A stretch of DNA of 64,000 bases, taken from the NCBI GenBank assembly GCA_964016885.1, contig OZ024756.1, forward strand, positions 12,710,001 through 12,774,000, read 5' to 3'. A program made the position numbers and the translations under genes. The DNA is from Eledone cirrhosa. Taxonomy: Eukaryota. Below, piece after piece: positions 7,395 through 55,261 of the stretch (positions are counted from its first letter, which is position 1; every line of letters begins with the position of its first letter). The notes below the pieces were generated by a model. The model worked only from the letters and a program-made list of their open reading frames with translations. It was not told the origin of the DNA and did not search any database.

Positions 7395-10300
7395 TTTACT
7401 TTTGCAAGCGGTCGAAACCAACATAATAGAAAGAAGAACTTGATTCTTGGCGCATGGAATGTGCGCACCCTCATGGATAGGGAGGGAAACTTCCTTGAGG
7501 CCAGAGAGAAGAACTGCCCTCATAGCTTGCTACCGGATCGACATAGCAATCCTCAGCGAGACTAGACTTGCCGAAGAAGGATCAGTAGCAGAACCGAAAG
7601 GAGGCTACACCTTCTTCTGGAAGGGCAATGCAAAGGACGAGGACAGAATCCACGAGGTAGGCTTGGCCATCAGGACTTCACTCTGCAAGCAGCTACCAGA
7701 CCTCCCAACACCTGTGAGTGAGCGGCTGATGAATATCCACTTCCCCATTGACCCATCTCGGCATGTCACAGTCATCAGCGCGTATGCCCCCACTCTCACC
7801 AGCAGCAATGAAGCAAAGGATGCTTTCTACGGGGAACTCAAAGCACTCGTGAAGGGCGTCCCCCCCCAAGCGATAAACTCATCCTACTGGGGGACTTCAA
7901 CGCAAGAGTCAGGTCTGACAGCAGCAACTGGAGGGGCGTGCTGAGACCTCATGGCACAGGGAAACTGAACTCTAACGGCCTCATACTGTTGAGTTTCTGC
8001 GCCAAGAACGACCTCACCATCACCAGCACGCTGTTCCGCCAGGCAGACAAGTTCAAGAGGACATGGATGCACTCCAGATCCAAACAATGGCATCTGATTG
8101 ACTTTGCCATATGCCACAGGAGGGACATCCGTGATGTTAAAATCACCAGGGCCATGCTTGGTGCAGAGTGTTGGACCGACCATCACCTGGTCAGGACCAT
8201 CCTGTCACTGCACATCACCCCAACGCATCGCAAGACTCCGAAAGTCTGTAGGCCAGCTTTCGACGTCGCATGACTCAAGCAGCCAGAGCATCGTGATGCG
8301 TTCACGGAAGACCTGGATGGCTGGCTGACTGCCCATGGACCACTGACCGGACCCCCAACTCAACAGTGGGACCAGTTCAGGTCGCTGGTGACAGAGTCAG
8401 CCAAGGCAACCATCGGGCCGAGGAAGAGAGTCCACCAGGACTGGTTTGATGAAAACGATGAGCGGATCAGACAACTCCTGGACGAGAAGAGGAGGGCTTT
8501 CATTGAGTGGCAGAATGACAGCTCCTCCACCTCGAAGCGCGACCGCTTCAAGCACCTCCAGAGGCAGACCCAAGCAGCGCTTCGCAGAATGCAGGACAAG
8601 TGGTGGGAAAAGAAGGCCGAAGAAGTCGAGAGATACGCTGACACAAAGAACTCCAAGATGTTCTTCAGCGCCATCAGGGAAGTCTACGGAACCCCCAAGT
8701 CTGTCATCACACCGCTGCTGTCTGCTGATGGCTCAATCCTGTTGCCCTCGACCAGGTCCCACAGAAGCCCGTAGTCGGCAGCCTCGACCCCCCCCCCCTC
8801 CCCACGTTGGATGAAGTCACGAAGGCAATCAACCAGACCAGCTCAGGAAAGGCCCCTGGGAAGGACGGGATTCCTGCCGAGATCTTCAAGTCGGCCTGTC
8901 CAGCTGCCCTGGGGGCCTTCCACACCCTCCTCGTCAGCATTTGGGAGGAAGAAGAGGTGCCCAAAGACTTCAGGGATTCCACAGTTGTCTCGCTTTTTAA
9001 GAACAAAGGCAGCAAAACTGACTGTGGCAACTATCGGGGCATTTCTCTCCTGTCCATCGCTGGGAAGGTCCTGCCTGAGGCCCAGTGTGGGTTCCGCCCA
9101 AACCACAGCACGATCAACATGATCTTCTCTGTACGCCAGGTGCAGAAGCGTGTCGAGCAGAACATGGACCTCTTTACCGTCTTCATAGACTTGACAAAGG
9201 CATTCGACACTGTCAATAGGGAAGCCCTCTGGTTGATCCTGTCGAAGTTTGGATGCCCAACAAAGTTTGTGAACCTGATACGGCAATTCCATGACGACAT
9301 GACCGGGCAGGTGCGCTCGGGCGGAGAGGCATCGGAATCACCAACGATGCGTGCTGGCTCCCGTCCTCTTCAACCTGTTCTTCACCTGCGTGCTCAATCA
9401 TGCCGTCAGAGACTTTGAGCACGGAGTGTATCTGCAATACAGACTGGATGGCTCCCTGTTTGACCTGCGGCACCTGACGGCCAAGACAAGGACCGTGCCC
9501 TCATGGCCCACAGGGAGTCTGACCTCCAACTCATCATCAACAAGTTCGCAGAGGCCTCCTGCCTCTTCGGTCTCACAATTAACCTTGGCAAGACTGAGGT
9601 CCTGTTCCAGCCTGCACCTGCCTCTGTCGCCCACCCTCCTTCCACCTCCATCGGAGGCACCCAGCTAAAGACAATGGATGACTTCAAGTACCTCGGCAGT
9701 GTCATCAGCAGCAATGGAAGCGTCGACAAGGAGATAAACGCCAGAATCTGCAAGGCCAGTCAAGCCCTCGGCCGCCTGAGGACACGCGTACTGAACCAGC
9801 ACAACATCAGGCAGTCCACCAAGCTCAAAGTGTACAGGGCCGTTGTTCTCACCAGCCTCCTCTACGGATGTGAGACATGGGCCCTGTACAGAAGGCTCCT
9901 GAAGCAGCTGGAATGGTTCCACATGTGCAGCCTGCGGTCAATCATGAACATCAAATGGCAGGACAAGGTCTCCAACCTCGAAGTTCTTGACATGGCTGAG
10001 ACAACCAGTGTCGAAGCTATGATACTGAAGAGCCAACTCCGATGGGTGGGACATGTCATCCGGATGGACGATCACAGGCTTCCGAAGCAACTGATGTATA
10101 GGGAACTCTGTTCGGGGAAACGAAAGCAGGGCAGGCCTCTCAAGAGGTTCAAAGACTGTGTGAAGTCCAGTATCAACAACACTGGAATCGCGCCAAAACA
10201 ACGAGTCTCATGCTCAGGACAGGACTGAGTGGAGAGCCCTTACCAGACACACCAAAGACTCTTTTGAAGAGAAGAGATGGGCAGAGGTCACTGAGGCCCG

Positions 10301-11489: not shown

Positions 11490-14385
11490 GTGGTTTTGGT
11501 GCCATGATAAAAAGCACCCAGTCCACATTGTAAAGTGGTCATGTACATGTCACAACAAAAAGCACCCAGTCCACACTGTAAAGTGGTCATGTACATGTCA
11601 CAACAAAAAGCACCCTTTCCACATTGTAAAGCGATCATGTACATGTCACAACAAAAAGCACCCAGTTCACACTGTAAAGTGGTCATGTACATGTCACAAC
11701 AAAAAGCACCCAGTTCCCACTGTAAAGTGGTCATGTACATGTCACAACAAAAAGCACCCAGTTCCCACTGTAAAGTGGTCATGTACATGTCACAACAAAA
11801 AGCACCCAGTCCACACTGTAAAGTGGTCATGTACATGTGTCACAACAAAAAGCACCCAGTCCACATTGTAAAGTGGTCATGTACATGTCACAACAAAAAG
11901 CACCCAGTCCACACTGTAAAGCGATCATGTACATGTCACAACAAAAAGTACCCAGTCCACACTGTAAAGTGGTCATGTACATGTCACAACAAAAAGCACC
12001 CAGTCCACACTGTAAAGCGATCATGTACATGTCACAACAAAAAGCACCCAGTCCACACTGTAAAGCGATCATGTACATGTGTCACAACAAAAAGCACCCA
12101 GTTCACATTGTAAAGCGATCATGTACATGTCACAACAAAAAGCACCCAGTTCACACTGTAAAGTGGTCATGTACATGTCACAACAAAAAGCACCCAGTTC
12201 ACACTGTAAAGTGGTCATGTACATGTCACAACAAAAAGCACCCAGTTCCCACTGTAAAGTGATCATGTACATGTCACAACAAAAAGCACCCAGTCCACAT
12301 TGTAAAGTGGTCATGTACATGTCACAACAAAAAGCACCCAGTCCACACTGTAAAGTGATCATGTACATGTCACAACAAAAAGCACCCTTTCCACATTGTA
12401 AAGCGATCATGTACATGTCACAACAAAAAGCACCCAGTTCACACTGTAAAGTGGTCATGTACATGTCACAACAAAAAGCACCCAGTTCCCACTGTAAAGT
12501 GGTCATGTACATGTCACAACAAAAAGCACCCAGTTCCCACTGTAAAGTGGTCATGTACATGTCACAACAAAAAGCACCCAGTCCACACTGTAAAGTGGTC
12601 ATGTACATGTGTCACAACAAAAAGCACCCAGTCCACATTGTAAAGTGGTCATGTACATGTCACAACAAAAAGCACCCAGTCCACACTGTAAAGCGATCAT
12701 GTACATGTCACAACAAAAAGTACCCAGTCCACACTGTAAAGTGGTCATGTACATGTCACAACAAAAAGCACCCAGTCCACACTGTAAAGCGATCATGTAC
12801 ATGTCACAACAAAAAGCACCCAGTCCACACTGTAAAGCGATCATGTACATGTGTCACAACAAAAAGCACCCAGTTCACATTGTAAAGCGATCATGTACAT
12901 GTCACAACAAAAAGCACCCAGTTCACACTGTAAAGTGGTCATGTACATGTCACAACAAAAAGCACCCAGTTCACACTGTAAAGTGGTCATGTACATGTCA
13001 CAACAAAAAGTACCCAGTTCCCACTGTAAAGTGGTCATGTACATGTCACAACAAAAAGTACCCAGTCCACACTGTAAAGTGGTCATGTACATGTCACAAC
13101 AAAAAGCACCCAGTTCACATTGTAAAGTGATCATGTACATGTCACAACAAAAAGCACCCAGTCCACACTGTAAAGTGGTCATGTACATGTCACAACAAAA
13201 AGCACCCAGTTCCCACTGTAAAGTGGTCATGTACATGTCACAAAAAAAGCACCCAGTTCCCACTGTAAAGTGGTCACGTACATGTCACAACAAAAAGCAC
13301 CCTTTCCACATTGTAAAGCGATCATGTACATGTCACAACAAAAAGCACCCAGTTCACACTGTAAAGTGGTCATGTACATGTCACAACAAAAAGCACCCAG
13401 TTCCCACTGTAAAGTGGTCATGTACATGTCACAACAAAAAGCACCCAGTTCCCACTGTAAAGTGGTCATGTACATGTCACAACAAAAAGCACCCAGTTCC
13501 CACTGTAAAGTGGTCATGTACATATCACAAAAAAAGCACCCAGTTCACACTGTAAAGTGGTCATGTACATGTCACAACAAAAAGCACCCAGTTCCCACTG
13601 TAAAGTGGTCATGTACATGTCACAACAAAAAGCACCCAGTCCACACTGTAAAGTGGTCATGTACATGTCACAACAAAAAGCACCCAGTCCACACTGTAAA
13701 GTGGTCATGTACATGTCACAACAAAAAGCACCCAGTTCACACTGTAAAGTGGTCATGTACATGTCACAACAAAAAGCACCCAGTTCCCACTGTAAAGTGG
13801 TCATGTACATGTCACAACAAAAAGCACCCAGTCCACACTGTAAAGTGGTCATGTACATGTCACAACAAAAAGCACCCAGTTCCCACTGTAAAGTGATCAT
13901 GTACATGTCACAACAAAAAGCACCCAGTTCCCACTGTAAAGTGGTCATGTACATGTCACAACAAAAAGCACCCAGTCCACACTGTAAAGTGGTCATGTAC
14001 ATGTCACAACAAAAAGCACCCAGTCCACACTGTAAAGTGGTCATGTACATGTCACAACAAAAAGCACCCAGTTCACACTGTAAAGTGGTCATGTACATGT
14101 CACAACAAAAAGCACCCAGTTCCCACTGTAAAGTGGTCATGTACATGTCACAACAAAAAGCACCCAGTCCACACTGTAAAGTGGTCATGTACATGTCACA
14201 ACAAAAAGCACCCAGTTCACACTGTAAAGTGGTCATGTACATGTCACAACAAAAAGCACCCAGTTCCCACTGTAAAGCGATCATGTACATGTCACAACAA
14301 AAAGCACCCAGTTCACACTGTAAAGCAGCCGTGTAGGTGTCACGACAAAAAGCACCCAGTACACACTGTAATGTGGTTGGTATTA
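11490..14385. repeat. 48-bp satellite, about 60 units (CACAACAAAAAGCACCCAGTYCMCACTGTAAAGTGGTCATGTACATGT), expanded inside a SINE
   Basis: Direct periodicity. The array runs straight into the SINE body (gtggttggtattagtaagagcatctagtcatagaaac, 14373-14410). All ORFs here are repeat artefacts. Confidence 0.97.
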
Positions 14386-15224
14386 GTAAGAGCATCTAGT
14401 CATAGAAACGAAGCTAAAATCACTTCTGTATGAGCAAGACATGGTCATCTGATCTAACATTGCTCACAATGTAACAACTTGTCTAACCCATTTTCCAAGC
14501 ATGCAAGGATTAGACAGGTTGCCATGTTACGAGACTAGATATGTCAGGTGACCACATGATCCATTTTTGATTTGGTTTTCTACGTCAGAAAGCCCTTCCT
14601 AACAGCAGCCAGAGGGTAGACTGGGTGTTTTTTGTCATGGCACCAACACCTCTTTACAGGCTGTACTGGGTGCTTTTTATTATGGCATCAACACTACCAC
14701 CTTACAGGGGTGGCTGTGTGCTTTTTGCCGTGGCACCAGCACAACCACCTTACAGTGCAGACAGGGTGCCTTTTGTCGTGGCACCAGCACTACGACCCTA
14801 CAGAGCAGTTAGGGTGCTTTTCATGGCAGCACTAACAGCTACCACCAACTACAAAAATATTAACTATAGAGGATGATAATTGGTTAAAGTAGCAAGCAAT
14901 CTAAGTGGGAAGAATCTTTGAAAGAAGTCTGAGGAAGAAGGGAAGGCTCATGTAAAGACCTCAGAAAGGGGATAATAAAGGACTTGAACAAGATAGACGT
15001 ATGGGAGCATGAAACCCCTCGCCCCAGTGTGAAGATGCCCTCGCAAACATAAGAGCCACTGAGTGTGTTTGTATGTTAGGGGTCTCAAACTACTTTTCTA
15101 CGGTCCATGACAGGACAATTTTTGTGACTAATTCACATACATCCCCCTATAGTCTCTGTGTGTGTTTATTTTGATGAAAATAAACACATAGCAGCAGTCT
15201 ATCAGCTGTATTACAGATTAACAG

Positions 15225-30346: not shown

Positions 30347-31690
30347 TTATTTTTCAACCCAAGATTTAAAAAGCTGTTTAGCTTTTTCTAGATAAGCATC
30401 ATTTTTGCAAAATACATAAATAATTTTTTCTGAGAAAGTTTTTGGAATGACGGAAGAATAAGGCAGTTGAACATGTGGTAAAACTTGATCGATGGCCTGT
30501 TTGGAATAAAAATGTATTTTGTGAACTGGATCTTCATCGCCACTTGTATAGCCTAAGTTAGATTCATAAATAGCTAACTGATTGAGAAGTTCTTGGTCGT
30601 TCGGAATTATTTCCTGCAGAATCTTTTTACAGTCTACTTCACAGTGGAATGATTTCTCACCGACAAGTTTATAAAGTTTACGTTCTTGTATTCGTGTTAA
30701 AATCTGTTTAGCTGTTTGTAAAGTTTGTTTATCGGAATACAAGATTTCGTCAAACACACTGTCTGTCAGTTTCGTGTAAGCTGTCATATCGTGTCTAGCT
30801 TTAGAAAGAGTTAATTGTAAATGTTTACCCTGTCGGTGGATGCTGCTGTCCGCCTGTAGAAAAACATCTTTTAACATTTCAGTCATGGTGACGACTGTTT
30901 TGTGTTTATAAGCAAGGCAATGAAGTTCGAACCTAGAACGGAACATGTAGTAGAAACTAAGAGCAGTTTTATCCCTGAAACATATTTCTGTTTTGTTCTC
31001 GTCTATTGTCAAGACACGAGCAAATTTAATTATTCTCTTATGATCTGTGTGGTTTGTTAAACCGAGATAATGACAGTCTCTTGCAAAATAATCCCATTTA
31101 TCAACATCCACACCATTCTGTTCATTAGCAACGATGTTGTAAAGATATGCTTTATCAACACCCCTACCTGTATGTTCTTCATTACCAACAAATTTCTTGA
31201 GTGGATGTATTATGGTTTTTATGAAATTAACGTCTTTGTCATCCAATTCTGCTTTAAGGAAACCGTTTCTAACGCTAACGTTTTCATTCAAAATGTGTTG
31301 TAACATTTCTACGGAGGCTGCTTCGTGTTTCCATTGGGAGCCCGGTTCTATTTCTGGAATAAATATTTGGTCAAAAAAATGAGAAAACGGTCCGTGTCCC
31401 AAGTCATGACACAAGGCAGCTATTTCAACACACAACAAATCCTTGTCAGTGATGTTTAGCTCCGGTTGGTGGCTTCTTAAATGCCGTATGAATTCTCCGG
31501 CAAGGTGACATGTACCTATACTATGTTCGAATCTGCTGTGTGAGGCACCAGGATAGACATAATAACATAATCCAAGTTGTTTGATGCTACGAAGTCTCTG
31601 GAATTGTAAAGTATCGATAATTGTAACACACAATGGGTGTAATTCAATGGAGCCATGGATAGGGTCGTGAAATACCATGTAAACACCCAT
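30347..31690 (-). CDS. SAMHD1: SAMHD1-like dNTP triphosphohydrolase (HD domain only), intronless CDS, 447 aa
   Basis: DPIHGSIEL, IIDTLQFQRLRSIKQLG, PGASHSRFEHSIG, HDLGHGPFSH, WKHE, DVDKWDYFARD, YTKLTD and RKLYK; the metal-binding H-HD-D residues are intact. AATAAA signals downstream on the minus strand (~29920, ~29545). Confidence 0.96.
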   Translation of the reverse strand: MGVYMVFHDPIHGSIELHPLCVTIIDTLQFQRLRSIKQLGLCYYVYPGASHSRFEHSIGTCHLAGEFIRHLRSHQPELNITDKDLLCVEIAALCHDLGHGPFSHFFDQIFIPEIEPGSQWKHEAASVEMLQHILNENVSVRNGFLKAELDDKDVNFIKTIIHPLKKFVGNEEHTGRGVDKAYLYNIVANEQNGVDVDKWDYFARDCHYLGLTNHTDHKRIIKFARVLTIDENKTEICFRDKTALSFYYMFRSRFELHCLAYKHKTVVTMTEMLKDVFLQADSSIHRQGKHLQLTLSKARHDMTAYTKLTDSVFDEILYSDKQTLQTAKQILTRIQERKLYKLVGEKSFHCEVDCKKILQEIIPNDQELLNQLAIYESNLGYTSGDEDPVHKIHFYSKQAIDQVLPHVQLPYSSVIPKTFSEKIIYVFCKNDAYLEKAKQLFKSWVEK

Positions 31691-32079
31691 TATTTCTTTA
31701 TTATATCGTCTTAATCACGGTGTAGCAACTAATAAGTTGTTACGTAAAAAAACATCCCACTTATTTATCTTACAAAGATTAAATTATTGCTGATCAATGT
31801 TGTTGACTTTAATTTCATAGATTAGATATGATTTATTCAATTATTTCATAGGTTAGTATGCACATTTTAGCGACAGAGATAAGTGTTGATATATGTAAAA
31901 TATTCGAATTATCTCGTATGAATTAACTGCAATAATAATAATAATATTTCTATTTTTGGCACAAGGCCAGCAATTACCCCAGTGCATTATTGGTGTTTTA
32001 TTTTATCGACCGCGTAAGGATGAAAGGTAAAGTTAACCTCGGCGGGCTTGAACTCGGACCGTAAAGGGCCGTAACTCTA

Positions 32080-34480
32080 AGAGTTGTTTCTCTTGAAGCT
32101 GTTTGGCCGAGAAGATCACGTCAACAGTGCTGCCTCTGCCATTCCTAAAGCCACATTGGGACTCAGGAAGTACCTCAATAGCAATGTGCTGTATCAATCT
32201 GTCTAACAAAATGCTGCACAAGATCTTCCCAGCCACAGATAGCAGTGAGATACCTCTGTAGTTGCCACAGTCATCTTTGGCTCCCTTTCCTTTGTAAAGT
32301 ACCACCATCAATGCATCTTTCCAGTCCTGTGGTACATCTTCATTCCAAATATTCACAAATAGATCAGTGAGGCGGTTTAAGAAGTTATTATCAGCACACT
32401 TGAAAATCTCGGCACTCAGTCCATCCATTCCAGGTGACTTGTTGCTGTTTAATTTGGCAATGGCCTTCGCCACCTCATCAAATGAAGGAGGATCAGCCAT
32501 TGCCAGCTTTGTAGGTCTGGATGGAATCGACCGGATGAACTCATCATCAATTTCTGATAGTCTGTTGAGAAGCTCATCAAAGTGGTCATGCCACCTGATC
32601 AGGATTTCCTTCGGATCTCTGAGCAATTCCTTGCTGTCCGTGGAACGAAGTGGTGATATTTGTGGACCGGTCGGACCATACACCTCCCTGAGCAGATTGT
32701 ATAAGAGCTTTGTATCATGGCTATCTGAGGCCTTCTGGATTTCATCAGCCTTTTGGCTCCACCAGGTATCTTGCATGGCTCTCAATCGATGTTGCACATG
32801 TGCCTTGATCTGCCTGAAGGTCTGGTCAGAACGTGTCTCACACAACAATGATGTCAGCACTTTTTGTTTCTCTTCAAGCAAGGTCTGGATCACTGCATCA
32901 TTTTCATCGAACCAGTCTTTATGCTTTCTATTGGTATGACCTAAAACTCCAGCACTAACATCATAGACGGTTTTCTTCAATGATTCCCACGTATTTTCAC
33001 ATTCCATGGACTCAAGGAACTTTGACAGCTCAGCTCTGACTTTCTCTGTTTTCAGACGAGCCATGTTTAGTTGTTTTGGAAGTGCAACCTTCTTCCCCCT
33101 TACTTTGGGCTTCACAACAAATTGAAATTTGACGTACACCAGACGATGGTCAGTCCAACATTCCACGCCTCGCAATACACGAACCAATGTGATATCCCTG
33201 ACATCACGTTTCCTCGTTAAAACAAAGTCAATAAGGAATCTGGATGCATCCAAGTTGTCTTATATTTGTCTTTCTGCTGAAAGAGCGTGTTCCCAACAAC
33301 AAGATCCATCTCAGTGCACATCTACAATAGAAGTAGGCCATTGTTATTGCACTTACCTACTCCATGCTTGCCCATCACACTCCAAGCTTGCCAGTCATTA
33401 CCAACACGTGCATTAAAATCACCAAGGATGACAATCTTGTCTGCATAAGGTATACCATGAATGACCTCTCAAAGACATGTAGAAACTTAGTTTTTCATCA
33501 TCACTGGCACACATAGTACACACTGACCAGAGTCACAAAGTGGTTTTGAATCAGAAGGACTCATGGACGTTATCCGATCATTGAATCCACAAGGAAGATT
33601 TTCCAGCTTTGAGACGATTCCATTCCTGAATGCAAATGCGACCCCTGCCTCTCTCCTACAACCCTCTGCTCCACCACTCCAATGGAAGGCATATTCTCCC
33701 TTCTGTTCTGTGAATTGACCCTCACCTGCCAATCTCGTTTCTGAAAGAGCAACGATGTCCATGCTATAGCGATCGAGTTCCCTTGACACCAAGGCAGATC
33801 TTCTTTCAGGGCGAGTTTTACTGGACAGGAATCAAGTAAAGTTCTTACATTCCAGCATCCAATATTCAGAGGTTTGAACCTCTTTGCAGTTGAAGGATGA
33901 TGACCGGGCCCACGCTGCAGTGCCATGGGACACCTGCTGGGCCAGACCCCTTCACAATAAGTTCCAGAGCCCTTACTGCCATTGACTTCAAGGTTATCAT
34001 CTGTCATCATAGAAGCTGGTGCACTTTTAGGCTACGGCCAGCCACACGAACCTGTAACAGATCCTCAACAAGCAATGCCTGTGCTTTGAATGTTTTTTAA
34101 GTGGGGAAAGGCCTTGGACGCGACCAATCCCACTCTCTGAGCATCGAAAACACTACCCGAAAAGGAGAACTGGTCAACATCATCGGATGCTTCCGAAGTC
34201 GCAGGGTTTTTTTTCAAAGTTCCCCTCTCCTAAAAAGGTGTTGTGATAACAACTGGGGGCCTTTCACTCCCAGGTTTAAAAAAAAAAAAAAGTATTATTT
34301 GGATGGCCGTTGACTCTGCTGAGTTCCCCTGCCCTTTATTGGGTCTTGTATTTCATCCTACAGGGTGTCCAAATATCACCTTCTTCACCAAGCAAGCTTG
34401 GTGGGGTTGCCGACGACCCAACCATGAGACAGGTAGTACTGGGTTACATGTTACCAGTAGCACTCAAGAGCAACCTGACA
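32080..34480 (-). mobile_element. RTE-clade LINE, 5' two-thirds (5'UTR, APE, start of RT), truncated at a SINE
   Basis: NIGCWNVRTL, DIVALSETRL, ECWTDHRLV, KSPGMDGLSAE, NYRGISLLSVAGK, LPESQCGFR; joins a SINE 3' half at ~32080. Confidence 0.92.
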
Positions 34481-39617: not shown

Positions 39618-42600
39618 TTACCAGCACAGCAACAAATAGGAACAACAAAATATGAAGATGTCGCATCTCAGAGTTGCAAAACTTAATGTTGGCACTCTCA
39701 GAGGTAGATCTGCTGAAATAGCGGAGATGCTGGAGAGAAGGCAGGTGGATGTGTGCTGCGTGCAAAAGGTGAGATGGAGAGGTGCCTCTGCAAGACTAGT
39801 CGTAGGCAAACGTCTTAGCTATAAGCTATTCTGGGTAGGTAAGGATGATGGGTTAGGGGGAGTAGGCATTTTCCTGGCTGAGAAATGGATCAATAAGACA
39901 ATAGAGGTAGTTCGAGTTAGTAATCGAATAATTAAGCTTAGATTAGTTGTAGGCAGGAGACTACTGACAATCATCTCGGCCTATGCTCCCCAAGCAGGCC
40001 TAGGCAAAGATGAGAAAGACTGCTTTTACGAGCAACTTTTACAAACAACCGCAATGACAGAGGACGGAGACATCGTTATGCTAGCAGGAGACTTCAATTC
40101 GTCATGTTGGACAGCTCCAGGATGGTTACACTGGGGTACATGGTGGGCACGGTTACGGCTCAAGGAATGAAGGAGTGAGACTTCTTGAATTTTGTGATGC
40201 AGGTACATTGACTATTTGCAACACAACTTCCAGAAACCTGCCAATCACCTAATAACCTACAAATCTAGTGAGCACATAAGCCAGATTGACTTCTTACTAG
40301 TTAGGCAGCGGGACAGGCAGATAGTGTCTAATACCAAGGCATACCCTGGGGAAGAATATACCCCACAGAATAGGTTAGTCGTTAGTGATATCTCAGTAAG
40401 CAAGAGATGGAATGGGACATATAGGAAGGTGTGGAGAAGAAAGGTCTGGAAGCTAAAAGACCTTTCACTAAAATACAAATTTAGGAAAGCCCTTCAAGAT
40501 GTATATGACGAAAAAGAAGACGATTTAGAGATTTATGACATAGATAATAATTGGAATTTCTTATGTGACAACTTGCTGCAGGCTACTGATGAAACTTGTG
40601 GCTGGAGCAGAGCTCCAACCAGACAGAGTGACCTGGTGGTGGAACAGCACAGTAGATAAGGCCATTAGAGACAAAAGACTAGCATGGAAGGCTTGGAAAA
40701 AGGGTGGGAGTAGGGAAGAATATACAGCCACTAAGAAGCTAGACGTCAGGTGTACTTAGCACGCAGGGAGGCGAAGAGTAGGAGGTTTGCCAATGTTCTG
40801 CGACGGGAAGATCAGAGGCGTGCGGTGTTCCACATTGCAAGGCAGTGTGTCAATACAAATCAGGATGTTGTTGGAGATAAATGTGTCCAGGATGATGCCG
40901 GTGTACTTAGTGTCACGAATAATCAGAAAAAGGAGCCTGGAAATGTCATTATGAGAGACTGATGAATGTGGAGAACGAATGGGAGAGAGAGAAATTACCC
41001 TTAGTAGATCCGACAGAGGGACCAGCTATTGAGATTGACGAATATAGGGTCCAAGAGGCGATTAGGGAAATGAAAAATGGTAAGGCTGCTGGACCATCGG
41101 GAATAGTTGCTGAGATGCTGAAGGCATCAGGTGACGTAGGCACTAAACTGGTTGCACGCATCATCAATCAGGCTATATATGGTGGTGTCATACCCAAAGA
41201 CTGGTGCAGCAGTATTCTCATAAATTGCTACAAAGGTAAAGGGGATGATCTGGAGAGGAGCAATTATAGGGGTATAAAACTGATAGATCAGGTTATGAAA
41301 GTGGCAGAAAGGATATTAGCACAATTAATTAGAGAAAGGGTCAAACTAGATGAGATGCAGTTTGGTTTTGTGTCTGGGAAGAGTACAACAGATGCCCTCT
41401 TCTTGGTGAGACAATTGCAAGAGAGGTTCTTAGAGAAAAATAAGCCACTATACTTAGCCTTTGTTGACCTAGAGAAGGCCTTTGATAGGGTACCCCGATC
41501 TGTCATGTGGTGGTCCCTAAGGAAGCTAGGTGTTGAGGAATGGCTTGTGAGGACAGTGCAAACTTTGTACAGAGGTACTCTCAGTAAAGTCAGGGTAGGA
41601 ATGGAGTTTAGTGAGGAATTCCAGATACAAGTAGGAGTACATCAAGGTTCGGTCCTCAGCCCGCTCTTGTTCATTATAGTCCTCCAAGCCATAACAGAGG
41701 AGTTTAAGACTCGCTGTCCATGGGAACTTCTCTATGCTGACGATCTGGTTCTTATAGCAGAATCAGTAGAGGAGCTAGAGAATAAATTCTGGCTATGGAA
41801 ACAGCAGTTGGAAGCAAGAGGACTGAGAGTGAACCTAGCTAAGATAAAAGTGTTGATGAGTAGAAAAGAGGACAAAACTCTGATTCCGTCAAGGAAATGG
41901 CCATGTTCGATATGCAGAAAAGGAACTGGCATAAATTCTATAAAATGCACACAATGCAGATCCTGGGTACACAAGAGATGTAGTGGGATAGCAGGCAAAC
42001 CAACAAGTCGGGAGAAATATGTATGCAGTAGATGTACAGGGAAATTAGACAGTAGAAGTCGCATTGATAGACACATTTTTCAAATGCAGGTTCTATAGAA
42101 GTGGTGGATAGCTTCCGGTACCTAGGAGATCAGATTAGCATGGGAGGCGGGTGTTCCGAGGCCATAGTATCTAGAATAAGGACGGGTTGGAAGAAGTTTA
42201 GGGAGCTGCTTCCTCTGTTGACGAAGAAGGGTTTCTCCCTGCGTACGAAAGGCCGGTTGTATGATGTCTGTGTGAGGAGCGCGATGCTGCATGGTAGTGA
42301 GACATGGGCAGCAACTGCAGAGGATATGCGACGGCTGGAGAAAAATGAGGCAAGCATGCTCCGTTGGATGTGCGTGAACGACCTAGCATAAATGTGTTGA
42401 GAGAGAAACTGTGTCTGAGAGGGATAGAATGTAGTGTACGGGAGAGGAGACTGAGGTGGTATGGACATGTGATGCGCATGGAGAATGACCGATGGGTGAA
42501 GAAGTGCCAGGAAATGCCAGTTAAAGGAAGACGTGGTACAGGTAGACCAAGAAAAACATGGGCGGAGGTGGTGAGAACAGACCTCAGATCATTGAAGCTC

Positions 42601-44940: not shown

Positions 44941-47130
44941 TCATAAACAAAGGAATTGAAATAGTCTTAACATTTCCTCTTCATTGTTCTTGATCTTATA
45001 TTCCACATTATGAACATTTTGTAAATGTTGAGGAATCTCTGAACTATCATCATTGTTTATCAGAAAAAGCTTTCCAGCTTCTGGCTGTCGGTTTTTCACA
45101 ATTTCAATTGCATATTTTGTGTAGTAGAAAATATCCTTTGAGTAAAGGATTCCAATGTTGCAGCTAGTTTTCATTATATTAATGAAATTGTTGTATTTTC
45201 TTACCCCTAGATCACAATCAACATCTCCATAGCTAGTTACTAAGCCGAAACAATGCTTCAGATCTTCTGCAATACTTTCTGCTATGCCTGTACCACTGTC
45301 AGTTACACTCCTGTTTGTACCAGCTCTGTCTGATGTTAAAATGTAGACATCATATTGAAACAAAGGATGTTTGTCTGACTGATCACATGCCTTGCTATCA
45401 GATGTTGGATGAAATTGCAAGCAAAGTTCATAGTATTTCTTAAAAACTGGTGTGGCTTTATCAGGTCCTTTTTTATATAAATCTTTAGCATATTCAAGAT
45501 AAATTGTTTTCCTAAGATTTACATCAATTTCACTTAGTTTAACATTAGAAAACTCTAAACTGATGAAAGCTTGCTGAAATTTTTTCTTTCGAAATAGCGA
45601 TCTTAACTCTTGTGACAATTCATTTCCACCATATTCTGTGAGGAATTTATTAAAAATGTCTTCATCTGTCAAGTTTTCTATAGATTGAATTAATTCCAAA
45701 AGTTTGATTTTATATTCAGTATTGCCAAATCTATAAATTGCCTCCATCATTCTTTTTATTTCCCAAATTTTGTTCTGCTTTTTATCTACCTTCACAATCT
45801 CAGACACCCAATTGATAGCATTGACAAACATATCTGTACCATCATCTGTTAAATCTTCTTTTATCTCTTTACTTTCTTCTTCATCAGCCAGCAAAAAACA
45901 AAATTTTCCATACTGGACAGAAAATTTGATGTTTTCAAAGGGAAGCATTTTTGCAAAATCAACACTTTCGAAGCATTTCTTAGCATTTTCATATTCATGC
46001 AGACTTATATATAACAAAGCCAGGTCATAGATGCTGTGTATATTATCAGGAGACAGTCTACAGGAATGTTGGAAATGATATTCGGCTTTATTGACAAATT
46101 CACTTCTTGTACATTCAGGAATTCTTTCAGGGCATTTCATCAATTTCTTTGTTGCTCTTATTTCTTTCAATTCTGGAGTAGTACACTCATGCAAGGGTTC
46201 TTTTTTTATACAAAAATCTCTATAACCAGGAATATTATTTCGATAAATTTTGCCTAGATGATAATGAGCCAGTGATGTTTCATTTAACTGAATAGCTTCT
46301 TCTAGTAATTTCTGTGCTCTTTGATATTCACCAATTGTTAGATAGAAGATGGCACTCTTTTCCAAAATGAAACGGTCTTGAGGAAAAATATTATAAGCCC
46401 TCTCAAAATATTCAAATGATCTTGAAGCGCGATTCCCAATAAGGATTTTGTTTTCAAGGGATCCTAGTAAAACCAAAGTTTTAGCCATAAGATGTTTCCC
46501 AATACAATGAGGATAAGCAGAAAGGATTGGCTGTAATATTACTGTTGTTTCTTTTATTACTTCATTCAAGTTTTTTTTATCATAAATGTTTCTACTGTGA
46601 CGATACATAAGAAGACCCATACGGAAAAGCCCTAAATAATTGTTTGGGCAAACTTGAAGAGCTTCTTTGTAAAGTGTAATAGCTTGTTGATAGTGAGCAA
46701 AAGATATTCGTGAATAACAATAAGCAATTTCAGCTTTACCCCTTGCTACAAGTGAAGAAAAGTTTTCCCTGCTTTTTAATTCATTGAGCCGTTTTAACTG
46801 ATCATCTACCTTGGTGAACATTTCATTTTGCAGAAACATAAATGCATAGTTTGTTAATGCCAATATGTTATCAGGGTCTTTTTCCAGGATTTCGGTGTTG
46901 AGTTCCTCAGCCAATTCCTGCTTGTGTAAAGTCCATAGAAGGAATACTTTAACATGTTTGTGTCGAATTTCATCTTCTAAACCATGTAAAATTTCGTTTG
47001 TTAAAGCACAGTTGATTTTTCTTAATTTGGCCTCAAGCACATTGCCTCTGTGATCAAATGACTCCTCCAGTACATTTGGAAATTCTTTAATTAGGATCCT
47101 GTAATACTCTTTAATTTCTTCGGAGTCGCT
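44941..47130 (-). CDS. Terminal coding exon of an IFIT/TTC22-like TPR-repeat protein with C-terminal TIR-like domain (729 aa in this exon; start codon presumably in an unidentified upstream exon)
   Basis: The frame extends 30 codons upstream of the GTG at 47040 to a clear acceptor (cttctctttttttttacctAG|AGC GAC TCC GAA). TPR motifs: [78 protein letters not shown]...[9 protein letters not shown]. TIR-like motifs at ~44950-45360: [47 protein letters not shown]. Confidence 0.88.
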   Translation of the reverse strand, partial: [729 protein letters not shown]

Positions 47131-47391
47131 CTAGGTAAAAAAAAAGAGAAGAATAACATAGAGTACAGAAAGAAAACAAAAACTTTGATTACACCTGTAA
47201 AATCTAAGATTATATTTGCATCAACAGGTACAAGGGTGTACATAACAAGAATTTAAAGTACAGTTGACATCATCATCATCATAATGCTTATAATAGTGAG
47301 AGATGGAGGCAGTGACAGTGGGAGTTTGGTTCCATTGTGTTCGAACTTGATATATATGTATATATTTATTTATCACACCACATATACATAC

Positions 47392-47662
47392 ATCATCATT
47401 TTATGTCCGTTTTTCTCTGCTTGCAAGGGTTGGATGGGTCCTATTCAGCACAGCATCTCTCCACTTGTCATGGTCCTTCGTCATCTCCTTGGTGAGTTTC
47501 AGTGATCTGAGGTCTGCTCTCACCACCTCCGCCCATGTTTTACGTGGTCTACCTCTACTGCGTCTTCCCTCTACTGGGATTTCTTGGCACTTCTTTACCC
47601 AGCGGTCATCCTCCATGCGCATCACATGTCCATACCATCTCGGCCTTCTCTCCTGCACACCA
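47392..47662 (-). mobile_element. 5'-truncated 3' end of the RTE family seen at 39618-42708, in the TPR gene intron
   Basis: RWYGHVMRMEDDRWVKKCQEIPVEGRRSRGRPRKTWAEVV, nearly identical to 42450-42693. Confidence 0.93.
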
Positions 47663-48108
47663 CATATACATATACTCATCAGTCAATCTCTGAGATACTT
47701 TATTATACTGCGTATAAGAAATAATTGTTTCTACTTTTAGTACAAGGTCAGTAATTACCCCAGTGCATTACTGATACTTTATTTTATCAACATTGTAAGG
47801 ATGAAAGGCAAAGTTAACCTCAGCAAAATTTGAACTCAGACCACAAAGGGCCGCAACTCTATGCTGCAAAGCATAGCATCTGACCCTCTACCGATACTGC
47901 CAATCCAAAGGGTTGAACAGGTTGTCACAGATCAAGCCAGTAATTAATTGAAGCTAATGTTCTCATAGACTGGTCAAGGGCCATATTTGGCTTAACCTTC
48001 TGGAGGCTAGATTTTTTAATGAATTGCTTCCCTTGATACTGTATTATGTATTAAGGGGAGATTACTCTACCAGCAACTTCTGTCATCCACAGCACCAAGT
48101 GGGTTAAT

Positions 48109-48905
48109 TACTGTATTTACTCAAATATAAACCAATCCACCCCACACCACTATATTTTACTTTTGAGAAATGGGCAAAAATTCAAATCTCATTTTTTAGC
48201 TGAGGCATTTAATCAACACAATAGGTTTAGATGGTGTGGTTTTGAAATTCTCATGACTATAAAATATATTTATGAAGTTTTAATACTTAGATGTTTAAAA
48301 TGTTTTAAGAGTATAGTTTTCGTTTCAAAACTCCATTATGTAATGCTTTTTTACCATTCCATCTGTTTTATGAAATTTCAACAAGTTTCTCAAATTTTTC
48401 TTTACTTCTGGCCATTCATATGCTAGGAGTAGTTGAAAGCAAGAGATCAAGTAAGAGAACTTTGTATAGGGATTCATAGAATAGAAGAGAGAAGAGAGAC
48501 AGCAAGTGAGAGTGAGAGCAATAGAACACATGTCGGAAGTAAGATTTCAATCTTATGTAAGATAGAAAGAAAAAGTATTAAGACAGAGAAAAGCAGTTGG
48601 TACGCGCATGTGTATGTATGTATATGAGATATTTATGTATTAAAACATTCAAGTTATAGAAATTTATTGGAAATATTTTCAAGGGAATGCATAAATAACA
48701 TCAATGGAGACGGTGTAAAAAAAACGAACTGCTTCATTGTAAAATAATCACAAAATATTTTAGCGCCTCATTTATGTAGAATTTGAAGTTGGTGAAAATC
48801 GGCAAAATATTGACCTCAAATATAAGCCGACTCCCCACCCGCCCAATTTTACCATCGATTTTTTTTGGTCAAATAATTCTTGGCTTATATACAATATACA
48901 CTGTA
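48109..48905. mobile_element. pogo/Tigger-like non-autonomous element (related end at ~60850)
   Basis: Ends TACTGTATTTACTCAAATATAA ... GGCTTATATACAATATACACTGTA with TA termini; degenerate. Confidence 0.55.
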
Positions 48906-48909
48906 TGTT

Positions 48910-49990
48910 CCAGTTTGAGCTTGGTTTCGCGCACACACGTCAGCTCTGTAGCCAGGACCTCGATTTCGAAACCCATTCCCTTCACATGGCCTCCCGCTTT
49001 ATCCAGTGTGGATATCCCCCCACCTTGATCCAAACTGATCCACCTGGTTCCCATCCTTGTTCTCGTCCCCACCTTAACACTGGTCATTTCCGCCCTCACC
49101 ACTCTCACAACAGTACATTCCGTATCCGCCACCTCTCCACCTGCACATCCACCCATCTTATATATGTCTTCCAGTGTTCCCTTTGTGGGTCCTTATACAT
49201 CGGAAAAACGGGACGCCATTTGGCCGACTGTTTTACGGAACATTTGAGGGACATACAACTTCATTTGGATACTCCCGTTGCCTGTCATTTCCATTCTCCT
49301 GGTCACTCTTCCCTACATGTCTCAGTCGTGGGTGTCCTTTTACATCACGGATCACAGGCCTCGCGCACCAGGACTTAACACACACACATCCCTGTCCATT
49401 ATCACACACACATTTGTACATTGACCCCTACATTCCTATGGCTCTCTTATGATCAGAAACATATACTTTTACAGCTAATATAGACCAACAAAATACGAAC
49501 ACTCCACTTTTCCCTTCACAGCTTTGTACACACACACACACCCTTATATTAACATACTTTTGCGCATAGCTTCGTACTTACAAGCACATACACACTCTTT
49601 TACTTACATATGCACACACATATCCTCTTAGCTTCATACGGACATATAATAACACACATGCACAAGTATAGGTCTTTACACAAAACCTTTTTTTGTTTCA
49701 TTTCAGGTAGACGCGCTCCATCATCCACTTTTCTAAAAAATATATCATACACAAAACGCTGCACCAACAGTTTTGCAAGAGACGGCAACATAAATGGACC
49801 TGTTATTTTTCTCTAAGATTTTTTCCAATTCCACCCCACCCGTCCCTTCAATCTTTCTAATTCCTCATTCTTTCTTCTGATGAAGGACTAGTGTCCGAAA
49901 CGTTAAGACCCTCTTGCTGCTATTTCAAGCATTAACCTTATATATTCCTTCCATATACTGTACCGATTGTGTTGTTATTTCTGTTTACCT
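48910..49990 (+). mobile_element. Penelope-like element 3' part (GIY-YIG plus terminal region)
   Basis: TCTSTHLIYVFQCSLCGSLYIGKTGRHLADCFTEHLRDI...PVACHF; hammerhead motif downstream. Confidence 0.85.
49871..49909 (+). ncRNA. Minimal type I hammerhead ribozyme of the Penelope terminal repeat
   Basis: tctt-CTGATGA-a-ggac(tagt)gtcc-GAAA-cgtt-aaga: intact core, 4-bp stem II, palindromic AACGTT stem III, stem I tctt/aaga. Confidence 0.78.
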
Positions 49991-50028
<38 letters not shown>

Positions 50029-50814
50029 TATATATCAGAATGGAAATGGTAAAAACCAGTTAGTCCATTACTCACCAGAGTACTCGATACTTGGGGTAGT
50101 AGAGTGGGTAATATGAAAAATTTGGGACCCCGATGGCTGAGCTCCTGCCATTCCAACAGCTAGCTCCTGGAACAGCAGGAGCTAATGAAAAGTATTTGAT
50201 GTTGCTGTCTAAAGTGGTTGTGCTGGTATTGCAAAAAGAATGTAGTTAGTAAACACTCTAAAGTGGTTATGTTAGGAAAGACATCCAGCCATAGGGACCA
50301 CACCAAATATGTAATGTATGAGCAAGATGAGGTCGTTCCGATATGTCTGGCCTTGGACTGTAACAACTTGTCTAACACATGCCAGTGTGTGGAAAGTGGA
50401 TGTAAAATGAGGATGGCGAGATTTTTTGTGTATGAGCCTTTGCCCACCACCCCCAACCTCGAAGTACCCCAACCCCCTAACGTCTAACGTCTAAATCCAG
50501 CCTTGTATATATATATTTTCGGGCGTGTGTATGTGTGTGTGGCTTTGTATTATCTGTAGCTGGAAGCTTGTGTGTGTGTTTATATCTCTGTCTGCGTCTA
50601 TATGACTTTTTTCTATTGTTTCTATGTATGTGTTTATTTTCGCGTGCATGTATGTGTGTTGGATACTTGTGTGTATATGTGTGTTTGTAACGACGTAAAC
50701 ACTGTGGAAAGATTTTATATACGTGTGTGTATGTTTTTCAATGGGTGTGTGTGTGAGTGTGTGTTGGAGTATTCACGTGTAATCCAGCTCAGAGTAAATG
50801 AATAAACAATTAAT

Positions 50815-51660
50815 TTAAGGTTTAATTATTGGCAATATGCATTTTGGGAGGAAAAACCCAGCATCCACATACTCCCTCCACAACACTAATATCAAGAAGT
50901 CTTCTTGTGAACGTGACCTGGGCATTACTGTCAGCAGCGATTTGCGTTGGATGAAGCACATCTCTAAAATTGTCAAGAAGGCCGAGGGTGTCTTATCATC
51001 ACTCAGCACGACCTTTGTCAGCCACTCTCCAGCTATCTATTTACAGCTGTATATAGCTATGGTGCGGCCACACTTAGAATTTGCATCACCAGTCAGGAAC
51101 CCCTATCTTTCTCAGAACATTGACTGCCTGGAAACTGTTCAGGGACGTACAACTAAGCGAATACCCTCCATCAGGCATCTACCATACTCTGAGCGCCTTG
51201 CTTCCCTGGGCATGGATTCATTGAAGCTCCGACGCCCGGCAACTGACTTGGTAAACACCCACAAAATTATTAACCATCTTGCCAACAACAACCCTGAGCA
51301 CCTTTTTGATTTCCATGTTTCTAACACCCGTAGACATGCCTACAAAGTCAGAAAACAGCACAGCTCCCATGACTTTCAAAAACATTTTTTCACGCTCAGC
51401 GTTGCTGAAGCATGCAACAAACTACCTGCATCAGTTAGCTGTCGAGACACTGCATCCTTTAAAACTTTCATGCTTCCTGACATTTGCCAACACTACCCCT
51501 GATGTCCCCCACTCCATACACACGCACACATGTATTTCATGACTTTTACACTGTTCATTTTCCTGACATTTGTACATTATTCTACGTACTATACATGTAC
51601 CTTTGATGAGTTGTAGTGCACCTGAGCACTGTACACAATAATTTCATTATTATTATTATA
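50815..51660 (+). mobile_element. CR1-clade LINE 3' end
   Basis: MHFGRKNP, ERDLGITVSSDL, LYIAMVRPHLEFASPV, LETVQGRTTK, YSERLASLGM; (ATT)n tail. Confidence 0.9.
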
Positions 51661-52030
51661 TAGGCGGTGGATTGGCAGTATAGGTAGAGGGTCGGACGCC
51701 ATGCTTTGACGCATAGAGTTACAGCCCTTGCCATTCTGAGTTCAAATCCCGCCGAGGTTAATTTTGCCTTTGTAGTGGAACTATGTCTTACCTCGCAATA
51801 GTAACATTTTCATATGTAATAAGGTTAAATTGACCAATGGTCAATCGCATATGAATACATGGTCACTCTCTCTCCCTCACTGGTGAAGAACCACAGTTCA
51901 CGACAGACCAAACCACGAGAAACCACAGTACGGAGAAGACCAGAAGATGACTACGAAGCTTGAAAAATTATTATAAAATGTCTCCTACATTCCTTTCAAC
52001 AATAAAAATTATTTTTATAGAGGATGAGCA

Positions 52031-52581
52031 TTAACCCTTTAATGTTCAAACCGGCCAGAATTCTCTACCCTTTTCTGTTGAAACTGGCTGTAACTGGTCA
52101 CACAAACTGATGTTAAGGTATTGTTCTCAAAATAAATACTTTCAAAATCTCATAGATTCGATATTATGTGAGATAATTATGTGAGATAAAGCCTTTACCA
52201 TGAAAATATAATAGTATATATAGAGTAATGTGAATGTTATGTGAGGTAAAGCCTTTACTATGAAAATATAATAGTATATATAGAGTAATGTGAATGTTAT
52301 GAGAGGTAAAGCCTTTACCATGAAAATATAATAGTATATATAGAGTAATGTAAATGTTGTGAGATATTATGAGAGGTAAAGCCTTTACCATGAAAATATA
52401 ATAGTATATATAGAGTAATGTAAATGTTGTGAGATATTATGAGAGGTAAAGCCTTTACCATGAAAATATAATAGTATATATAGAGTAATGTGAATGTTAT
52501 GCGAGATATTATGAGAGGTAAAGCCTTTACCATGAAAATATAATAGTATATATAGAGTAATGTGAATGCTAAAGGGTTAAA
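52031..52581. mobile_element. piggyBac-like MITE (TTAA-CCCTTTA...TAAAGGG-TTAA) with an internal ~59/70-bp tandem array
   Basis: Terminal inverted repeats with TTAA; about 6 units of gtaaagcctttaccatgaaaatataatagtatatatagagtaatgtgaatgttat. An unexpanded relative is at ~62099-62305. Confidence 0.8.
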
Positions 52582-53095
52582 GAGATATTTATTTATATCC
52601 TGCAAGTCAGAAGCATGTTACTACCAATATACAGCTGCCAACTCATCGACTAAGGTATTTCTCTTATATCGTTTGTAAAAACAAGATCCTTAGAAGATTA
52701 TAACTTTGAGTTACAAAAAGATATAGATAATATTTAACCTCTCATCCTAACTATACCTTACATCCTTTCAAGGTAGATAAAAAAAAAGTACCAGTCTAGT
52801 ACTGGGGTCAATTCTTCCTCTATAGAAAAAAGTCAGCTGTGTTCAGACCTGGAGAGGGTTGGGCTCAGTCAGATTTAAAAGTACCCTAGACATGCCGTAT
52901 CACGGTGTCTCTACGACTCCACAAGGAGTTAATAATAATGAAAATTATTGTGCACTACAGCTCATCAAAGGTGCATGTATAGTACATAGAATAATTGTTT
53001 CTACTTTTGGCACAAGGCCAGCTATTACCTTAGTACATTACTGGTACTTTATTTTATCGACCCCGTAAGGATGAAAGGCAAAGTTAACCTCGGCG

Positions 53096-53320
53096 AAAGA
53101 GAAAACGTTCCAGCGCAGTCAGCCGAGACTTAAGACAAGGCACGACGGTCAGGCGGTAGTAGATGACGGACGCGATGTACGCGTTCGCCACCTCCGCTCG
53201 ACCTTTCAAGGATAGCTTCCTCTCGGCCCTTTTCTAGGTGAGAGAGGCCACCCTGCTCGTCACCTCGTCCCAGTTTTTGTCCGTCTGGAGGTCCGGACCG
53301 AACCAGACCCCTAGCAATTT
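53096..53320 (-). mobile_element. Tx1/L1-clade RT C-terminal fragment
   Basis: Minus translation LLGVWFGPDLQTDKNWDEVTSRVASL...RKLSLKGRAEVANAYIASVIYYRLTVVPC. Confidence 0.75.
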
Positions 53321-54089
53321 AATAATAATAATAATTGTTTCTACTTTTGGCACAAGGCCAGCAATTACCCAGTGTATTACTGGTACTTTATTTTATCGAC
53401 CCCGTAAGGATGAAAGGCAAAGTTAACCTCGCCGGGATTTGAACTCAGAATGGCAAGGGCCGTAACTCAATGCGTCAAAGCAGGGCGCCCGACCCTCTAC
53501 CGATACTGCCAATCCACTGCCCTGTACATAGAATAATGTACAAATGCCAGGGATGAGGGGTTTCCAGCCAAAAGTCAAACCTGATCCAGTAGTCCTTTGA
53601 TCAAGTGTTCCGGGTATGAGACAAATACTGTTATTTAGCCCACGGTCAGATCTGATCCAGTAGACCTATGAGCATCTAAGTCAGCTTAATTTGGGAGCTA
53701 CACAACAACAATGAAATAATAGAGATCTATATACATGTTTGCTGCTGTTGTGTGCTCTTTTGTGTTGGTGTCAGTGTTATGTTTTGGGGAGGGGTTGTTT
53801 TCATTCTCAGACCGGGTGATGTGTTGTTTCCTTGAGCAAGACACTTTATTTCACATTGCTCCAGTTTACTCAGCTGTAGAAATGAGATGATAGGGACTGT
53901 GGTCCCTACCATTCCACTGCAATGTGGACGTGGAGGTGCCACGGCAAAAAAAAAGCACCCAGCACTCACTGTAAATGAGGTTGGTGTTAAGAAGGGCATC
54001 CAGCTGTAGAAATCAAGCCAGAATCAGTTCCCGTCCCACCCTTGCAAGCAGGGAAAAGCGGACGTAAAATGATGATGATGATGTCTGAG

Positions 54090-54958
54090 GTGTGTTTTCT
54101 TTTTTTTCTTTTGATTGTGTGAAAGTGCTCCTCCTCGTCTGACGACGAACGAGGGTCATCTTCTGCGTTGGAGGGGAGGGGTAGATTTTCGGGTTGTGTT
54201 TGCGGTGCGGGTGTTTTGGAAATTGTTTTTTTTTAGTGTGTGTGTGTGTGGGGGGGGGGGCATTGTTTTCTTTTGAGCTGTGGTTGTTGTTTTTGTAGTG
54301 GTGGTTGTGGTGGTTGTGGTGGTTGTGCAGTTGTTGGTGGTGTAGGCAGGATTGGGGTCTTCTTATTAAGTTGAGGACAGACAGCCCTCAGGTGACCTCT
54401 GGCTCCACAGAGGTAACACGAGGGCCGCCTACCCTCAACGGTAATGTTGATAAAAGTTTCATCATCCAGTATGATGCGTTCAGGGATCTGGGCGATCCTT
54501 TCGGGCCTCATTTGAACTACAAGTTCGAGGCTCGTTCCACTGAACGCGTCACCCGATGCCTTTCCCATGGATATTAGTGTGTCATCGTCTAGGTTCAGGA
54601 AACCTGTCAAAACCCACCATATGTCCATAATCGGCAGGATGGTGTGGATTTTTATTTTTTGTGTCCTTCTACCCATGTACGTAGGGTAGAAGGTGTATGC
54701 GGTGGATGTAATTGGTTTTATGGACAGTTTCACTGCTGTGTCCCTGTCCTTCATGAGAATGGATAGACTCCCGTAGAGTCTATCCTTCTGAATGAATATG
54801 ATGTCTTTCATGACATCTTTTAAAACCAGCTCTAACTCACTCTGTGATGGTTGAGCTGGTTTTTTGCTTTTGTTTGAGACTGTCTTAAACATGACAGTGT
54901 TTAGGGGTCTCTGGCTTTTTTGTTCCGGAGGAGGGCGGGGGGATCGAAAATGATCCAT
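54090..54958 (-). mobile_element. LINE ORF1 (gag-like) with CCHC zinc knuckle, decayed 3' part
   Basis: ORF 54233-54958 contains ITVEGRRPSCYLCGARGHLRAVCP followed by a Pro/Gln-rich tract. Confidence 0.75.
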
Positions 54959-55261
54959 TTTCCTCGTACATTATATATAGTCAAGATAACGATATACTTA
55001 CAATTGTCATTCTCGAAAGGAACTGCGTGATTTCCATGTTTCAAGTTCTGAAAACTCTAAGGAAAAACTTCTGTGTAACTTTTAAAGTTGTCTGGTGTAA
55101 GTAATGTGTTGAAACAAACCGTTCGGCGTGAATATTCCAACATATACAAATAATATAGTATATTTTTCTATTAATTTCAGTTTCGTTTTAGTTGAATTAA
55201 GTTGTTTACTACGGAAAATACGTCGACATTTCTCGGTAAAAACTTGACTGTTTATACACAC

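Follow-up and report, generated by a model that had tools for sequence, protein, structure and literature searches.

The Eledone cirrhosa gene described here is intact, and its sequence places an IFIT-like TPR superhelix and a degenerate TIR-family domain in one predicted protein. This IFIT-fold-plus-TIR architecture is real, is common to a broad family of animal proteins and is largely undescribed. We read the protein as a cytosolic sensor of a phosphate-bearing nucleic-acid end that would signal through clustering of its TIR domains, and we give this reading a probability of roughly 0.45.

The preliminary description of the window (the whole 64-kb stretch of DNA that was analysed) had claimed an uninterrupted 729-aa exon, and this proved exact: the minus-strand open reading frame runs from stop to stop without an internal stop (Table 1). 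The in-frame stop 5' of this exon coincides with the AG of a splice acceptor, which is preceded by a long pyrimidine tract, and the full protein is predicted to comprise 741 aa, encoded by a first exon of 12 codons and a large second exon, with 7.87 kb of intron between them. Among the 2275 ATG..GT mini-exons of the 64-kb window, the candidate first exon scores highest against the N-terminus of the O. vulgaris protein P0004 (21, the next scoring 12); it is also one of three mini-exons in the window with a GTAAGT donor. Paralogs on contig C334 of the same genome have a matching 18-codon, phase-0 first exon. The layout given earlier for IFITs, a tiny first exon with the remainder in a single exon, is thus reproduced by prediction from sequence and homology, with the difference that the first exon of mammalian IFITs measures 5 nt (PMC3688568, available text), against 12 codons followed by a phase-0 intron here. 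In run X4, the kind of which is not on record, the match of one contig ends exactly at 47130, leaving seven further letters, and this hints weakly at use of the acceptor; the run does not cover the candidate first exon, and among the 15 splice joints listed of its 1252 there is none between 55002 and 47130. Word-index searches for homologs returned Octopus proteins only (4 and 3 matches among 8000 candidates), the closest being 58% and 40% identical. A word-index search for longer forms gave 0 of 3373, which is uninformative, as the profile search does list long relatives. The same strand carries, 13 kb downstream, a SAMHD1-like gene without introns; a fusion that takes in the SAMHD1-like exon was ruled out, as the exon ends in a stop.

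Table 1. Features of the gene and of the predicted protein (positions in the window)
Feature	Position	Strand	Remarks
ISRE/IRF-E-like element, tandem GAAA cores	55175..55188	-	about 140 nt upstream of candidate ATG
Candidate first coding exon	55002..55037	-	12 codons, phase-0 GTAAGT donor; predicted from sequence and homology
Predicted intron	47131..55001	-	7.87 kb; repeats and retroelement remnants throughout; donor and acceptor sequences
Main coding exon	44941..47130	-	729 codons; 58% identity to O. bimaculoides P0003 over 97% of length
IFIT-like TPR superhelix	45661..47130	-	exon residues about 1-490; profile against PDB, VIA fold search
Extra helical segment between IFIT-like part and TIR	45406..45660	-	residues about 491-575; helices in model, pLDDT about 40-65
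Degenerate TIR domain	44947..45363	-	residues 590-728; Box 1-like YDVYI; Box 2-like loop, D638, G642
Candidate polyadenylation signal ATTAAA	44675..44680	-	260 nt past stop; sequence only

The N-terminal region could resemble IFITs through generic TPR convergence, the protein then being an unrelated TPR-TIR adaptor. Its identity to IFIT is 13-17%, Pfam reports TPR repeats (TPR_2, E 4.6e-10), and a search of the PDB with the single sequence found generic TPR proteins only and no IFIT, all but the Pfam result being counted in favour of convergence. Profile searches gave a different ranking. With a profile of seven octopod sequences, IFIT5 (E 1.9e-11) and IFIT1 (E 2.4e-9) preceded the best generic TPR, a consensus TPR (E 4.2e-7); with a profile of 52 relatives, IFIT1 (E 1.7e-28) and IFIT5 (E 2.8e-26) led the natural proteins, and OGT followed at 5e-11. 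The larger profile aligns with IFIT1 in three stretches, in order, from residue 6 to 371 and including the non-repeat N-terminal segment; the best single stretch scores 47 bits, against at most 23 bits for consensus TPRs. An engineered 16-repeat TPR reached a total above that of IFIT1 by adding eight repeats of at most 23 bits each. Alignment of the seven-sequence profile with the chains of IFIT5 and IFIT1 of known structure reproduces all four pairings of motifs with IFIT that the preliminary description had given.

Searches with an AlphaFold model of the protein (mean pLDDT 70.5, from an alignment of seven sequences) agreed with this order. IFIT5 and IFIT1 took Foldseek ranks 1-5 with target TM-scores of 0.55-0.63; full-length OGT and SPY reached 0.19-0.27, yet with E-values near those of IFIT, a closeness that also speaks for convergence. 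By VIA, IFIT5 aligned over 430 residues (Z 25.3, rmsd 6.0) and IFIT1/IFIT5 in general gave Z 24-25 across 410-430 residues, compared with Z 21.4 for LGN and 18.8 for OGT, a gap of about 4 over LGN. The top Atlas clusters for the N-terminal part are IFIT (0.97) and TTC22 (0.96), a tie, so that the family may stand nearer to either of the two; TTC22 is not known to carry a TIR. Convergence is largely refuted by the ordered alignment from IFIT1 residue 6, its 47-bit stretch, the Z gap and the Atlas clusters, and we consider it very improbable. Kinship of residues 1-490 with IFIT beyond generic TPR likeness, as proposed at the outset, is supported by profiles and predicted structure alike, with the Atlas tying IFIT to TTC22. 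The IFIT-like part was recognised correctly, but its end, given as ~430, lies at about residue 490, and helices continue to about 571. One insert in the superhelix, at about residues 300-343, is poorly predicted; it falls in the pivot region and is absent from IFIT1. When used as a BLAST query, P0091, whose unnamed sequence reads as an IFIT-like fragment, found a hemichordate protein first and two generic TPR proteins above octopus proteins.

The C-terminus, described earlier as TIR-like, is by its sequence links a TIR-family domain, albeit degenerate. With a profile of 99 family domains from which octopus and urchin sequences had been left out, the domain of the window protein scored E 5.4e-11 and one from a sea urchin E 2.4e-5, and this sea-urchin domain is a canonical TIR (Pfam TIR_2, E 1.5e-15). 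TIR_2 also matches 7 of 52 other relatives. The Atlas places the C-terminal part with TIR clusters (0.91-0.92). Pfam TIR and TIR_2 gave no match on the window protein itself, and a profile of three octopod TIR domains found nothing meaningful in the PDB. Box 1 reads YDVYI, against a consensus of YDVFISY; among 105 family TIRs, the Box 2 columns hold D in 58, P in 42 and G in 69, the window protein having L for P.

Two models give this domain five beta-alpha units (residues 593-728) in a flavodoxin-like fold, although the model of the TIR alone is a weak one (pLDDT 56.8), and searches with it do not single out TIRs. Its Foldseek search returned nothing under 1e-3, and VIA scored receiver domains at Z 10.9 and the RPS4/RRS1 TIR at Z 10.0 (rmsd 3.0, 122 aligned). 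The fold searches find flavodoxin-like domains, with TIRs tied with receiver domains. We accept the identity as TIR because the sequence links settle it, structure alone being insufficient.

We found that the fusion extends well beyond this genome. Against 1.84 billion representatives, the seven-sequence profile matched 833 clusters at E <=1e-3 and 174 at <=1e-10. Among the 150 top-listed relatives, 101 have a TIR-like domain (0 in reversed controls), and 97 combine it with an IFIT-like region aligned over 200 residues or more; of 106 TIR-like matches, 94 lie no more than 60 residues from the C-terminus. A FastTree of 145 N-terminal regions, unrooted and containing no full IFIT or TTC22, served solely for choosing clusters to name. 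Twenty of the 150 top-listed clusters were looked up and an organism was given for 17, with labels that are almost all 'uncharacterized' or 'hypothetical'. They include the gastropod, bivalve and cephalopod genera Octopus, Batillaria, Gigantopelta, Pomacea, Patella, Bradybaena, Biomphalaria, Tegillarca and Mercenaria and, outside the molluscs, the urchin Lytechinus, the hemichordate Saccoglossus (a short protein without TIR) and lampreys. The lamprey members score about 1e-56 with the N-terminal profile; with the TIR profile their match is weak (E 6.5e-4 to 3.4e-3). Judged from these sequences, the IFIT-TIR fusion is a large, mostly unnamed bilaterian family and no octopus singleton.

Within E. 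cirrhosa, five further copies stand in tandem over 18 kb of C334. They are 39-41% identical to the window protein, and all have the TIR and a short first exon that ends in phase 0. The mollusc genera have many divergent paralogs each, and paralogs without TIR occur in O. sinensis and O. vulgaris. Tandem copies and many divergent paralogs agree with what would be expected of immune receptors.

In databases, the Octopus homologs bear automatic labels that name either IFIT or TIR. XP_014785074 of O. bimaculoides (58% identical) is a 'TIR domain-containing protein' in UniRef and bears no IFIT label; Octopus proteins labelled 'IFIT 1B/5-like' by their source are 40% identical and end before the TIR. 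A literature search largely confined to papers outside subscription found no account of IFITs in invertebrates or of IFIT-TIR proteins. A survey of the TIR-domain proteins of bivalves, reportedly from 2017, may already include the IFIT-TIR layout. Proteins called 'TIR-TPR' in oyster (PMC4346834) and Aplysia (PMC9334734) have the same two domain classes and are listed as orphan TIR adaptors; the accessible parts of these papers give a bare label, with neither an IFIT link nor a function, and we compare them by description only. According to the available text of PMC3688568, IFITs are confined to jawed vertebrates, candidates from lamprey, lancelet and acorn worm having been rejected; that text does not name molluscs among the genomes searched.

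With IFIT1 and IFIT5 (PDB 5w5h, 6c6k, 3zgq, 4hot), the window protein shares the whole fold in order, the motifs along the chain, the K150 and R186 sites, a predicted tiny first exon followed by a large one, and an ISRE-like site close upstream. It differs in having about 85 extra helical residues and the TIR, in the pivot-region insert, and in its altered R253, R260, Y250, Q288 and F337 sites. An IFIT consists of TPRs only, about 480 aa with no further domain, whereas this protein has a predicted 741 aa with a C-terminal TIR. The IFIT-type superhelix with its N-terminal subdomain is present by profile and fold searches; we do not class the gene as an IFIT because of the extra domain and the diverged pocket.

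IFIT5 positions were counted on the profile alignment, and Table 5 of PMC9677429 gives the same residues at these numbers; in the available text of that paper, K150, R253 and R186 are the strongest RNA contacts of IFIT5, and R260E has a high effect. Two of the eight testable high-effect contacts are kept in the window protein, K150 (as R141) and R186 (as R177), and six are altered (Y250 to F, R253 to E, Y254 to K, R260 to L, Q288 to H and F337 to N); the high-effect positions T37 and Q41 fall outside the alignment. IFIT5 D343 aligns with D369. The net charge of the first 480 residues is -4.

Most TPR arrays bind peptides, and the superhelix might accordingly bind not RNA but a peptide or a protein (viral proteins, chaperones and host signalling proteins come into question), the TIR relaying or dampening Toll-type signalling. 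The six lost contacts would suit such a function, as would the pivot-region insert absent from IFIT1 and the replacement of the K150 site by T in short octopus paralogs. What this account does not predict is the pattern across the family. Conservation was counted in 145 of 160 proteins, 15 that matched fewer than 200 residues being excluded. The three most basic of 287 columns, in sequences that are interrelated and were recruited with a profile already holding R141 and R177, are those at window residues 177 (R/K in 137 of 145), 141 (122 of 145) and 264 (116 of 145), and they correspond to IFIT5 R186, K150 and R260. Most octopod rows (8 of 11) have L or I in column 264; the family-wide conservation of this column is therefore not a seed effect. 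Two other columns mapped to IFIT5 are often basic (K257 in 93 of 145, Y254 in 97 of 145), while the R253 site is not conserved across the family either. We consider peptide or protein binding unlikely. Read from these alignments, the family looks built to hold phosphate, and the pocket of the window member looks diverged.

A further question is what the TIR would do once a ligand is bound. It could be an enzyme that the ligand switches on and that hydrolyses NAD+ or synthesises cADPR. Production of cADPR is described for many animal TIRs outside the TLRs (10.64898/2026.04.20.719644, available text), and in the sea-urchin member the canonical motif is retained, glutamate included. In the window protein, E676 lies 12 residues after S664, like the S63 and E75 of TIR domains (PMC7075850, accessible part), and P0003 also has E there. 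Two alignments, however, pair the glutamate of the urchin with Y670 or A674 and not with E676; in the paralogs P0013 and P0014 the +12 residue is Q, and in this region of the family TIRs no column holds E in more than 26 of 105. An enzymatic role for the TIR is distinctly unlikely in our estimate, and under the sensor reading the TIRs would act mainly as scaffolds.

The upstream region offers a possible route of induction. Positions 55175-55184 are the sole strict match to GAAASYGAAA in the 64-kb window; as 0.77 such matches are expected by chance, it is the position alone of this single motif, picked post hoc, that is notable. ISREs lie near the start in mammalian IFIT promoters (PMC3688568, available text), oyster IRFs activate ISRE reporters (PMC5557890), and IRF genes are present in the E. 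cirrhosa genome. The element is possibly a virus-inducible promoter element, going by its motif. It is absent at the same place in the C334 paralogs, and promoter homology between the window gene and the C334 copies does not rise above shuffles (its score being reached by 66 of 300 and 293 of 500). A GAAA-rich stretch lies 3.9 kb upstream of every C334 first exon; it may be an IRF site or an A-rich chance occurrence.

Induction of this kind would also suit an effector in the manner of IFIT, which sequesters viral RNA or blocks translation and in which the TIR is an assembly module or a relic. The IFIT fold, the two-exon layout and the ISRE-like site fit such a role, and so do the TIR-less octopus paralogs and the SAMHD1-like neighbour. 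A relic would not be expected to persist as this TIR does, in two thirds of the top-listed relatives (101 of 150) at a mean identity of about 20% and with Box 1 and Box 2 positions conserved; its retention with these motifs therefore argues that the TIR is used. We regard an effector of this kind as highly unlikely.

For the sensor, we infer the functional steps from what is observed, namely the gene, its IFIT-specific homology, its TIR-family domain and the family with its conserved basic columns. Expression would be started by an IRF that acts at the ISRE-like site before the first exon. The superhelix would then hold an RNA end through R141, R177 and K258, the ligand most likely being a foreign RNA 5' end. 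Closure of the clamp, or the gathering of several copies, would bring TIRs together, and these, mainly as scaffolds and not as NAD+ hydrolases, would recruit TIR adaptors towards NF-kB/IRF.

According to the available text of PMC3688568, IFITs arose with jawed vertebrates and interferon. The finding of an IFIT-fold family with TIR in molluscs, echinoderms and lampreys dates the fold back to early bilaterians, and suggests that it began as a signalling receptor. A broader history, which we offer tentatively and consider rather unlikely, is that a receptor of this layout, an RNA-end-binding IFIT fold with a TIR, formed an ancient bilaterian cytosolic class ancestral to IFITs; the class would have expanded in molluscs, kept members in sea urchins and degenerated in lampreys, and in jawed vertebrates the TIR would have been lost while the binding part stayed on as an effector of interferon. 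The 'orphan TIR' proteins, mostly missed by Pfam, gain a function to chase, and the family provides a testable candidate for the sensing of viral RNA ends in molluscs.

The IFIT-TIR gene has five tandem paralogs on another contig of the E. cirrhosa genome (C334), spaced at about 18 kb. Over the 2142 nt of the main exon four of the five are identical in DNA sequence and the fifth is slightly different; the array is either the product of very recent duplication or an artefact of assembly. Each of its units carries a stretch with four GAAA cores, 3.9 kb before the start of the first coding exon of the paralog, which may be an IRF site ahead of a non-coding first exon or an A-rich chance occurrence.

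Features of the window and of contig C334
Feature	Location	Strand	Remarks
LINE-like reverse-transcriptase remnants	window 7444-10228, 32033-33259, 39640-42098		broken; from translations
Long minisatellite	window 11511-14433		source of several repetitive ORFs
SAMHD1-like dNTPase gene	window 30347-31714	-	intronless, without SAM domain; by similarity to human SAMHD1
245-codon ORF	window 54233-54970	-	weak zinc-knuckle match, E 0.006
Five tandem paralogs of IFIT-TIR gene	G000:C334, about 7,000-84,000 (L002-L006, L012-L021)
Four GAAA cores in one stretch	L013, about 4650-4680	-	recurs in every C334 unit

Within the window, the SAMHD1-like gene shares the strand of the IFIT-TIR gene and lies 13 kb downstream of it. 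It matches human SAMHD1 at E 9e-116, its HD-site motifs are unbroken, and further copies are present on contigs C14 (46%) and C5, the latter broken. It is possibly a retrocopy within a small antiviral cluster. The 245-codon ORF, which lies in the predicted intron just after the candidate first exon of the IFIT-TIR gene, is likely a retroelement remnant.

Among the relatives in other molluscs, the Octopus proteins P0005-P0011, P0016 and P0004 include paralogs from O. sinensis and O. vulgaris that lack the TIR, stop at around residue 500 and carry T at the position of the IFIT5 RNA contact K150. P0004 terminates exactly where the TIR would begin, which looks like a frameshift or gene-model error. 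In two gastropod entries, P0017 (1941 aa) and P0187 (1577 aa), the TIR is internal and a further IFIT-like unit comes after it; they represent either tandem fusions or merged gene models.

The family extends to lampreys, in which four uncharacterized members of about 839 aa (P0147, P0176, P0178 and P0182) have a barely detectable TIR and short isoforms have none. The IFITs of jawed vertebrates may be connected to the invertebrate family through these lamprey proteins.
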